This document shows positions 12,001 through 15,000 of a DNA stretch of 25,488 bases, in pieces. The stretch is taken from sequence record LC487996; one strand, given 5' to 3'. The position numbers were made by a program. Source of the stretch: Stx2-converting phage Stx2a 981509. Each line of letters starts with the position of its first letter. The stretch's first letter is position 1.

Positions 12001-15000
12001 GTACGATATGTACTTAACTTGGTCAATACAATTTGTTCTAAAATGGGGCGTTTTTTTACAACGCTTTGTATTTAATAGTATTGTTTTTTAGCGTGGGTGT
12101 ATTGCCTCGGCGATGTAAGGAGAGATCAGAATTGCGTTGTTTAGTGAGTTGTATCTATTTATTTTCCAATAAATACAATTGGTTATGTGTTTTTTTGGGC
12201 GAGAGGAAAAGAAAACCCGGCATGGAGGCCGGGTTGATGATTAGCGGTGTGGCCTTGAGCGATAATGCTCACACACATGTTCAAGATTTCCATGCCTTAT
12301 CCGTTCATAGGCATTCACATGAACTTCTCGATCGAATTGGTCATTCAAATTGTATGTAGACATCTGTGTTTTCTCATATTGGCGGCAGCCCTACAACCGC
12401 TTGAAAAAATGTACCAGACGCGCTAAGGTTACATCGCAAATATTGTGTACCTTAACAAGGGCTCCTTTTGGAGGCTCTGGTTAAACAGCATCAATGTCGG
12501 ACTGGGGAGTTGGACATTGTGCTGAATGCTTTTGCATTATTGAGGCCGAACGTAAACCTTCAGAATTGAAGAGATGCGTTCGGCTTCTTCGTTTGTGATA
12601 TCGTTAGGAATGCCTTTAATCGTTACTGTAACCCCTGATTCAGGTCGAAGAACTACTGGAAGATCATAGGTATGAAGTGCATTAGCCTTGCCTTCGACTT
12701 TTGTTGGTTCGCCAGTCAAATCTTTTTCCTCACTGGATTCTTTGTCAATCGGAGTGTATGGGATTTCTTCACCAGACTGGAAAGCTACAAACTTTTTGAT
12801 TGCACTTTCCATGCGGCTTTTATATGCAGTAATGCTGCTGTCGCTAGGCTTCGGCTCAGTTGCGTTGATGTATCGCTCGGCAAGCTCATTCACATCAAGC
12901 TGAGTAACATCACCCATTTCCTCTTCTTGGACTACCGTTAAGAGGCGAGCGGATGAGTTTTTTAAATTTCGAGCGGTGGCCTCCTTCATTATGTTCAGCG
13001 ACATAAGCTCTTCAAGGAAGTCCTTGAATGCCTGCACGCTAACGTTTGACTTTGCCATTTGCTCTCTCTCTAAGTTATTGACTCAGATCGAGTTTATCCA
13101 GGAATTGATTTGCATGCAAGACTCAAGTCTTGAGAATTTCCGTTCAAGATCCACTCTCAATAAAAAAGGCCGCACCTCTGCGACCTTTCATCTCCTAAAT
13201 CTCTTTTCTCTTACCTAAAGAAACAGCAGGCTGGGTCAGCCCTAACAACTTCAAGTGCATCGGTCAGAGAAAGCTCCGTGCTATACAGGTGTTATTTCAT
13301 ATCTTTTTGCATCCAATAAATTTTCCATCTGTCCAGAGAGCGGATGCACTTGATTCTTGTTGATGGCAGGACGTTTTTTCACCTGCCTCACCCTGCCATA
13401 CAGGACGCTGCTCACCGATATCTATCGTCCGGTCATTGATGTTATAGACAATATCCAGATCATTACGGATATACTCAGATGGCCTTATGCTTTCAATGAA
13501 TAGATGAACTTCTTTTTGACCGCTTGATACTCATGGCCATTAAACTCCATCTATCCTCTTTACCCAAACGTCTCTTCAGGCCATTGGCTGGCGATAACTT
13601 TCCCCACAACGGAACAACTCTCATTGCATGGGATCATTGGATATTGCGGGTTTAGTGGTTGTAGAAACACCTGACCGCTATCCCTGATCAGTTTCTTGAA
13701 GGTAAATTCATCACCACCAAGTCTGGCTATGCAGAAATCGCCGGGCTCAACAGCTTGCTCAGGGTCAACCAGAATTAACATCCCGTCAGGAAAACTAGGT
13801 TTGGAACCTGTTGGTGCGGTCATTGAGTTACCTTCAACCTCAAGCCAGAATGCAGAGTCACTGGCTTTTTTGGTTGTGCTTACCAATCTCTCCGCATCAC
13901 CTTTGGTAAAGGTTCTGAGTTCTGGAGAGAACATCCCAGCCTGAACATGAGAAAAAACAGGGTACTCATATTGTTTTTTAACTGGGGCCGATGAGTATTC
14001 GCCAACAGGTGAAAATGTCCCGTCGTGGTTGAATGATATGTTATCAATACCAAGGTATTTAAACACCACACCAATATCACTAAGAGATGGATGACGAGAT
14101 CCGCGCAACCAGTGTCCAATTCCACCCTGCGTCATACCTAGCTCTTCGGCTAACTTCTCTTGAGTTATGCCGAGCTCTTTCATTCTGGATCTAGCCAGTT
14201 CATACCATTTCATTTTCATGTCCTTATTATTACGCTCTGTACTGGAACCATCCATGCACAATGTGTATTTTTACTTGTATTTGAGAAGTACATATTGTAT
14301 TTTTTTATTCGTGGTTACTATGGAGGGCATATGAGCAACCTACGAAAATATCGAGAGTCACTGAATATCTCTCAAACAACACTTGCTAAGGCAGTTGGAT
14401 GCACACAGGGAGCTATCGGACATTGGGAATCTGGTCGTCGCTTCCCAGACCTTAAAACATGCCGTGCTCTTGTTGCGTGTCTAAACAAGTTAGGCGCAAA
14501 AGTAAGTCTTGATGACGTGTTCCCGCCGGAGCACAAAGCCGCTTAATAAGCGGAGCCGCTCTTTGTAACAACGGACATTCGTCCTACGTCGCTGAAAAGC
14601 GAGTCCCAAGATATCTGACCAACTAAGGCCATATGCGTTTCCACGCATACCTTTCAACTAACTATTCACTATTGGAAATCTTAAGAAATGGAACGAACAA
14701 GTTACAGCAAACTATCCCAGCGTGACGTTGATCGCGCAGAAACAGATTTACTCATCAACCTGTCAACGCTTACCCAGCGCGGTCTGGCAAAGATGATTGG
14801 CTGTCATGAATCGAAGATAAGCAGAACGGACTGGAGGTTTATTGCTTCGGTCCTGTGTGCTTTCGGAATGGCATCAGACATCAGTCCGATTAGCAGGGCT
14901 TTTAAGTATGCGCTTGATGGACTCACCAATAAAAAACGCCCGGTGTGCAAGACCGAGCGTTCTGATCAAATACAAATGGAATTTTAACAACATCCAACGA

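Follow-up and report, generated by a model that had tools for sequence, protein, structure and literature searches.

What kind of repressor holds the Stx2-converting phage Stx2a 981509 in lysogeny, and at which DNA sites would it act? In the stretch of this phage analyzed here (sequence record LC487996; 25,488 nucleotides [nt], hereafter the window), positions 13560-14546 encode cI on the minus strand and a divergent cro on the plus strand, with the cI stop at 13560 and cro at 14331-14546, as a first-pass annotation of the sequence had placed them. That annotation described the repressor, CI, as a recombinant in which a lambda tail carries a foreign DNA-binding head matched to Cro. The answer given below builds on observed sequence identities, domain families, a breakpoint within cI, and the clustering and conservation of operators. 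We hold with high confidence that window positions 11998-14546 are the immunity region of a lambdoid Stx-family prophage of the “VT2-Sakai / Stx2-II / 1717 / Nil2” type (CI2c/Cro4), with a CI/Cro switch of the form proposed here. The stability of CI and the wiring of its operators set the readiness of Stx prophages for induction and, hence, the output of Shiga toxin.

The domain mosaic of CI

The two coding sequences comprise three parts:

13560..13970, minus strand: cI part 1, linker end and C-terminal domain (YEYPVF...ETFG plus stop), lambda-type; Peptidase_S24, E = 1.1e-28
13971..14213, minus strand: cI part 2, N-terminal HTH_3 DNA-binding domain and linker, of phage L/ST64T type, not lambda type; HTH_3, E = 1.9e-10
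14331..14546, plus strand: cro, encoding a 71-amino-acid (aa), all-helical HTH_3 protein; HTH_3, E = 4.2e-12 (Pfam)

When CI is aligned with its lambda counterpart (reference NC_001416), 135 of the 136 residues from YEYPVF to the C terminus are identical. The first-pass reading of the C-terminal domain (CTD) as essentially that of lambda is therefore borne out, but the residue preceding this segment is Q, where the annotation had E. The sole change is W130L (Met-inclusive numbering; codon at window 13868-13870). In lambda CI, cleavage occurs at A111-G112, and S149 and K192 are the catalytic residues. The counterpart of lambda residues 101-236, comprising the linker end, the Ala-Gly site, the Ser/Lys dyad, and the dimer and tetramer surfaces, is kept but for W130L, and the VQAG, GNSM, and FKKL stretches are the same as in lambda CI. 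Since the domain is 135/136 identical, the cleavage site and the catalytic residues are retained, and CI would be expected to undergo autocleavage stimulated by activated RecA (RecA*). Both domains of the self-cleaving repressors, a helix-turn-helix (HTH) domain and a Peptidase S24 domain, were found by Pfam at the E values listed above, the HTH_3 match lying at residues 10-57.

At the DNA level, the CTD segment is 92.9% identical to lambda cI. The 29 differences in 411 nt divide into 27 synonymous, 1 nonsynonymous, and 1 in the stop codon, corresponding to a synonymous divergence (dS) of 0.39, a nonsynonymous divergence (dN) of 0.003, and a dN/dS ratio of 0.008, which is extreme purifying selection. 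The stretch similar to lambda has abrupt limits: its onset is at the Tyr101 codon, to within a few bases, and its end is the cI stop codon. The breakpoint thus lies in the inter-domain linker, ten residues ahead of the Ala-Gly cleavage bond. Since dS reaches 0.39 in the shared CTD, the junction is old rather than the trace of a recent swap; relative to lambda, it is ancient.

Upstream of the breakpoint, the resemblance is of a different order. The N-terminal 83 residues agree with lambda CI at 17 positions (20%), with two indels, of 14 and 4 residues. The first-pass annotation had called this head unrelated to that of lambda; this holds as far as the low identity goes but not for descent, given that the head weakly matches lambda repressor N-domain structures (1lli, E = 4.5e-4), has a recognizably similar helix-2/turn region, and has ELG-xQExxAxxxGMxQxGxG in common with the lambda head. 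As such, it is a distant homologue within HTH_3. The domain-wise alignment to lambda CI and other repressors confirms the mosaic (20% in the N-terminal domain [NTD] against 99% in the CTD, relative to lambda).

The closest partner of the CI head within the locus is the adjacent Cro. The two are identical at 22 of 62 positions (35%; BLASTP, E = 9e-13), and the recognition-helix strings that had been quoted as common to them (TQGAIGHWESGRRFP) are both present, with 10/15 residues identical. A Pfam search with Cro matched HTH_3 families only and no lambda Cro family; its structure matches were PDB 28tn (E = 4.5e-17) and the N-domain of P22 C2. In phages 434 and P22, Cro is a small protein that is paralogous to the repressor head and reads the same operators. 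By its sequence, the window Cro is likewise a paralogue of the CI head, of the 434/P22 kind, rather than a lambda-fold Cro, although its similarity to the 434 and P22 proteins themselves is low (E = 0.01-0.3) and their operators differ.

Compared domain by domain, the relatives of the window CI disagree about which half is close:

Lambda: NTD 20%, CTD 99%
Epsilon34 and Oslo (Salmonella phages): NTD 47-48%, CTD 80%; colinear 217-aa repressors, with ATACAnnnTGTAT-type sites at the right operator (OR)
ST64T (phage L type): NTD ~55%, CTD ~41%; recognition helix TQGAIGHWLNGRREPS, Cro alike along its whole length

The head, OR, cro, and the left operator (OL) behave as a single matched cassette of the Salmonella phage L/ST64T type, placed on a lambda-kind tail. 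Because the domain distances are discordant and the DNA breakpoint in the inter-domain linker is sharp, recombination at the linker fits the mosaic, as the first-pass annotation had proposed for a matched cassette. The annotation had also named what would speak against this account, namely a full-length match to a single known repressor without a breakpoint. Such a match exists, to the CI2c allele of Stx phages, and the breakpoint appears only relative to lambda; because of this full-length identity, the cI of the window is a known gene.

The exchange could also have run in the opposite direction: the combination of an L-type head with a lambda-type tail would be the older one, and lambda would have gained a foreign head, foreign operators, and a non-paralogous Cro. 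In its favor, two diverged lineages, namely the present allele family and epsilon34/Oslo (CTD at 80%), combine an L-type head with a lambda-type tail, the cassette of this head is widespread in Escherichia coli (see below), and the fold of lambda Cro differs from that of lambda's own repressor head, whereas Cro and head are paralogous here. On the other hand, ST64T joins an L-type head to yet another tail, so that either partner can move, and the data do not polarize the event. Lambda could equally be the recombinant; we regard the reverse order as a tangible possibility, though not as the favored account.

It is, in contrast, quite improbable that no swap took place, i.e., that both repressors descend vertically from a shared ancestor, with the head changing rapidly as new immunity was selected for and the tail held constant. 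The homology that is still detectable between the two heads (the structure matches and common motif described above), the full-length colinearity of the epsilon34/Oslo repressors with relatedness in both domains, and the dN/dS of 0.008 in the CTD would all be accommodated by such a history. However, a single codon marks the step in DNA identity from background to 93%, completed over a few bases, and the match ceases with the stop codon; a dS of just 0.39 would have to be squared with a head reduced to 20% identity and carrying indels of 14 and 4 residues; and the same head type is found with a quite different CTD in ST64T/phage L (~55% against ~41%). We therefore retain recombination at the linker as the explanation of the mosaic.

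Operators, promoters, and the start of cI

Six 17-bp pseudo-palindromes with the core TACR-N3-YGTA are found at OR and OL, listed without strand:

14286..14302: OR1, AAGTACATATTGTATTT; covers the pR spacer and -10; leave-one-out rank 1, the top-scoring site of the window
14254..14270: OR2, ATGCACAATGTGTATTT; overlaps the inferred -35 of the repressor maintenance promoter (PRM) by 2 bp and lies 4-6 bp 5' of the pR -35; leave-one-out rank 8
14228..14244: OR3, TATTACGCTCTGTACTG; lies across the spacer and -10 of the inferred PRM; leave-one-out rank 11 of 25,472
11999..12015: OL1, TAGTACGATATGTACTT; a near-perfect palindrome within the pL spacer/-10; leave-one-out rank 3
12024..12040: OL2, CAATACAATTTGTTCTA; overlaps the pL -35 by 3 bp, comparable to OR2 at pR in lambda; leave-one-out rank 4
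12057..12073: OL3, TACAACGCTTTGTATTT; leave-one-out rank 6

The ranks come from a symmetric half-site matrix built from five of the sites, with which the sixth was then scored. In all six cases, the left-out operator ranks between 1st and 11th of 25,472 window positions, a clustering at OR and OL beyond chance. Three matches to the strict core TACRNNNYGTA, all within OR or OL, were found in the 25.5-kb window, against 0.76 expected. The six operator 17-mers of VT2-Sakai are listed in Table S1 of PMC10742460; each is present exactly once in the window. In record AP005153, OR and OL each carry three annotated putative operators, and promoters are annotated as well.

The first-pass annotation had named two motifs as recurring at both OR and the pL region, and these fared differently. 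AAGTACATAT does recur, at 14286 (+) and 12006 (-): it forms the left half of OR1 and, as its reverse complement, that of OL1. The 19-mer TACTTGTATTTGAGAAGTA is found at OR only: it occurs once (14272-14290), covers the pR -35, reaches into OR1 at its left edge, and has a left arm that is unconserved in four of the diverged copies described next (L010-L013), and it was rejected as an operator.

Among 5,426 complete E. coli genomes, 773 carry the cassette of head, OR, and cro (93-100% identity), which makes this a common immunity type. Six prophages with diverged copies were fetched (L008-L013), and constraint was tested over the resulting seven alleles. The flanks of the six differ, with lambda O/P/ren or DnaB-type replication genes on one side and DUF1828 genes or nothing in the slot between cI and pL. 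Nevertheless, the top six matrix matches in every one of them are the same six sites, with order and spacing kept. Over OR and OL, variable columns make up 1/48 of the operator cores, 7/18 of the operator centers, and 43/105 of the positions outside the operators (core versus outside, Fisher p = 7e-8). This column pattern is what would be expected for a dimeric HTH protein that contacts two half-sites.

Two weaker matrix matches in the window were treated as chance: the one at 12171 is not among the top matches in other alleles, and the one at 14968 has a counterpart in one allele only (L013). No matrix match was found in any allele at the place of a hidden, lambda-spaced OR2 between OR2 and OR1. 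Lambda operators themselves (TATCACCGC..GGTA) gave three window matches at three mismatches, a chance level, and none of these lies in OR or OL.

The same alleles also carry side observations on the CTD and on operator spacing. W130L is found only in the O157-type allele, represented by the window, L008, and L009, while L010-L013 retain Trp as in lambda; the CTDs of L010-L013 contain S to C, E to D, and terminal G to S changes. From center to center, OR3 and OR2 are 26 bp apart, and OR2 and OR1 are 32 bp apart in the window and 33-34 bp apart in other alleles, this distance shifting by 1-2 bp through a T-run. At OL, the spacings are 25 and 33-34 bp.

The promoters assigned to these operators are as follows:

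11998..12026, minus strand: pL, TTGACC-17-TACTAT, leftward into N; consensus scan match of 9 of 12, directly over OL1/OL2 and kept in the diverged alleles
14275..14303, plus strand: inferred pR, TTGTAT-17-TATTTT, laid out as pL; TTGCAT-17-TATTAT in diverged alleles, and AP005153 places a rightward promoter here
14226..14255, minus strand: inferred PRM, by analogy with lambda PRM, with -35 ATGGAT (14255-14250), an 18-bp spacer, and -10 AATAAT (14231-14226); kept in L010-L013

An alternative pR, TTTACT-17-TATTGT (14270-14298), reaches 8 of 12 in the window; it was rejected because L010-L013 have lost it but retain TTGYAT-17-TATTWT. By analogy with the leaderless cI mRNA of lambda, PRM transcription would plausibly start near the A of ATG 14219.

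Where cI begins bears directly on OR, as the longest possible frame runs through OR3 and into OR2. Translation probably starts at ATG 14213 (MKWYEL, 217 aa), or else at ATG 14219 (MKMKWYEL) on a leaderless PRM transcript. The homologue in Salmonella phage Oslo begins MNWYDI, at the position of MKWYEL; the Nil2 annotation begins cI at ATG 14213 (217 aa); and the Shine-Dalgarno sequence AAGGA lies 7 nt 5' of this ATG. Every allele, like Salmonella phage Oslo, keeps both in-frame ATGs (14219 and 14213, six bases apart), which might serve a leaderless PRM transcript and a Shine-Dalgarno-led transcript from the establishment promoter (pRE), respectively.

That the longer frames are real (starting at TTG 14261 for 233 aa or at ATG 14255 for 231 aa), with “OR2/OR3” being coding sequence and no operators, is very improbable: the frame is indeed open as far as 14261 and several database records annotate a 231-aa cI, but homologues begin at the MKWYEL position, AAGGA precedes ATG 14213, variation among alleles within the supposed extension is nonsynonymous (S to F, D to G), and the operator cores inside it are invariant amid variable surroundings. 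On the homologue starts and the nonsynonymous variation, TTG 14261 and ATG 14255 were rejected as starts, and the 231-aa form, which begins inside OR2, is probably wrong.

The proposed switch and its relatives

The reading with the best support is an ordinary bistable CI/Cro switch. In the scheme that we infer for promoter assignments and, with lambda as the model, for the order of site filling, cooperativity, and cleavage, CI, probably of 217 aa, would dimerize through its lambda-identical CTD and bind the six operators, three at OR and three at OL, through its phage L-type head. Occupancy of OR1 and of OL1/OL2 would block pR and pL. Since OR2 abuts the inferred PRM -35, CI bound there could stimulate its own synthesis, and since OR3 overlaps PRM, CI bound there could shut this promoter off. 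Cro, with its near-identical recognition helix, would bind the same sites in competition with CI and drive the switch in the lytic direction. Upon DNA damage, RecA* would promote self-cleavage of CI at the Ala-Gly bond via the Ser/Lys dyad, the head would be split from the dimerization domain, and the prophage would be induced.

Several points weigh against this scheme. The OR2-OR1 spacing (32-34 bp, and variable) is unlike the 24 bp of lambda, and the pR -35 lies clear of OR2; because spacing and overlap differ from lambda, a lambda-style division of labor among the OR sites is an assumption. Both pR and PRM fall below the threshold of the consensus scan. The databases are inconsistent on the start of cI, giving 217 aa (Nil2) or 231 aa (AP005153, RefSeq). 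In the literature surveyed, no direct binding, footprint, or transcript data on this repressor were found, and the only published electrophoretic mobility shift data concern lambda CI, which bound these sites weakly, in the micromolar range.

The wiring may differ from that of lambda, because the lambda cooperativity domain sits here on a non-lambda spacing, one that is common to phage L/ST64T with its unrelated tail. Under this tentative and rather unlikely alternative, binding would be cooperative at OR2-OR3 and at OL1-OL2, pR would be controlled mainly by OR1 alone or by looping between OL and OR, and the lambda-identical tail would let CI dimerize or oligomerize with repressors of lambda immunity in polylysogens. 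The combination of this operator spacing with a lambda tail is the only part of the locus with residual novelty.

The gene, its mosaic with lambda, and the putative operators are already on record, and no new biology is claimed for them. A 1.3-kb segment of the window (13400-14700) is 99.8-100% identical in nucleotide sequence to 47 phage records, among them Stx2a_WGPS8, Nil2, 2851, 1717, YYZ-2008, the Morioka V526 Stx1 and Stx2-II phages, and the PA series; the head of VT2-Sakai is also the same, at 98.8%. Smith et al. (2012, PMC3430580) reported a cI common to Stx2 phage II, YYZ-2008, and 1717, with inconsistently annotated N termini, and a carboxy terminus of lambda CI shared with the CI2c allele. 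Llarena et al. (2022, PMC8951638) described Clade I repressors of Eru2/Eru3 Stx phages that are 61% identical overall to lambda CI; judged by this figure, their Clade I is probably the present allele.

The phages of the VT2-Sakai (Sp5)/Stx2-II/1717/YYZ-2008/Nil2/2851/PA type have cI-OR-cro-cII, the six operators, N, and the 173-aa open reading frame (ORF) all as in the window. VT2-Sakai, however, is reported with a stop-codon single-nucleotide polymorphism in cI, whereas the window cI is intact, and AP005153 has a lambda-like P in the replication module where the window has a DnaB-type helicase with a 339-aa intein-like insertion.

With lambda, the window shares three operators each at OR and OL, divergent cI and cro, O1 sites in the promoter spacer/-10, and the 3-bp overlap of OL2 with the pL -35. 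In contrast to lambda, the window head lacks ~14 N-terminal residues, including the region of the lambda N-terminal arm; the operator core is TACR-N3-YGTA instead of TATCACCGC...; Cro is an HTH_3 protein instead of the lambda Cro fold; the OR spacings are 26/32-34 bp instead of 23/24; and rexAB is absent. None of the marks of the imm-lambda group (its recognition helix and arm, its operators, its lambda-fold Cro) was found.

The likeness to phage L/ST64T extends over a near-identical recognition helix (TQGAIGHWLNGRREPS), the same operator core, and the spacing (OR 26/34, OL1-OL2 25). The ST64T Cro is closely similar along its whole length, with the recognition helix CTQGAIGH common to both, and the ST64T operators lie at 603-658 and 1410-1470 of its sequence (L014), in reverse orientation. 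The difference lies in the CTD, which at ~41% matches no better than P22 c2-type tails do (~46%). Epsilon34, vB_SosS_Oslo, and c341 resemble the window in their colinear 217-aa repressors, with the same start and ATACAnnnTGTAT-type OR sites, but differ in OR spacing (35/24 against 26/32) and in the recognition helix, TKGAVSHW.

Genes around the immunity region

Four further features flank the switch:

11536..11880, minus strand: N antiterminator gene (HK97/H-19B type), first gene of the pL operon; phrog_271, E = 4e-25; N in the AP005153 and Nil2 annotations
12214..12235, minus strand: terminator-like hairpin and T tract 3' of the 173-aa ORF
12537..13058, minus strand: 173-aa ORF at the position of lambda rexAB; phrog_2602, E = 3.5e-102 (a family of unknown function)
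14688..14987, plus strand: cII (HK022-like); Phage_CII, E = 2.2e-34

The 173-aa ORF, for which a Pfam search gave no match, is probably cotranscribed with cI, and the hairpin (12235->12214) would terminate this leftward transcript ahead of OL. In other prophages with the same cI, the slot between cI and pL holds DUF1828 and a hypothetical protein, or nothing. Since the cargo varies among same-cI prophages, the slot is a swappable position for genes expressed in the lysogen.

To the right of the switch, the cro stop codon is overlapped by a short palindrome (CCGCTTATTAAGCGG). Between cro and cII (14547-14620), a boxA-like CGCTCTTTG and a small GAAAA-loop hairpin (TCGCTGAAAAGCGA) resemble a nutR site. 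An O-like initiator and a DnaB-like helicase also follow downstream of cro, past cII.

The helicase gene (16229-18622) contains a 339-aa insertion (16832-17848) in the Walker A loop (GMGK/...THN/T, slashes marking its ends) relative to the otherwise near-identical P protein of Nil2. The insertion has LAGLIDADG/Hint Pfam matches, begins with Ala, ends in HN followed by Thr, and contains a Trp in “DNHLWE” and a Cys in “ECLCIMV”; it resembles a class-3 (WCT-type) intein, as in mycobacteriophage DnaB. At least 50 Stx2a phage records contain the insertion-bearing gene at 98.9-99.4% identity, labeled only as helicase or hypothetical protein. On its 3' side, the helicase gene is adjoined by a free-standing HNH endonuclease ORF (18701-19312; phrog_99, E = 3e-71), and the replication module thus holds two selfish nuclease elements next to each other.

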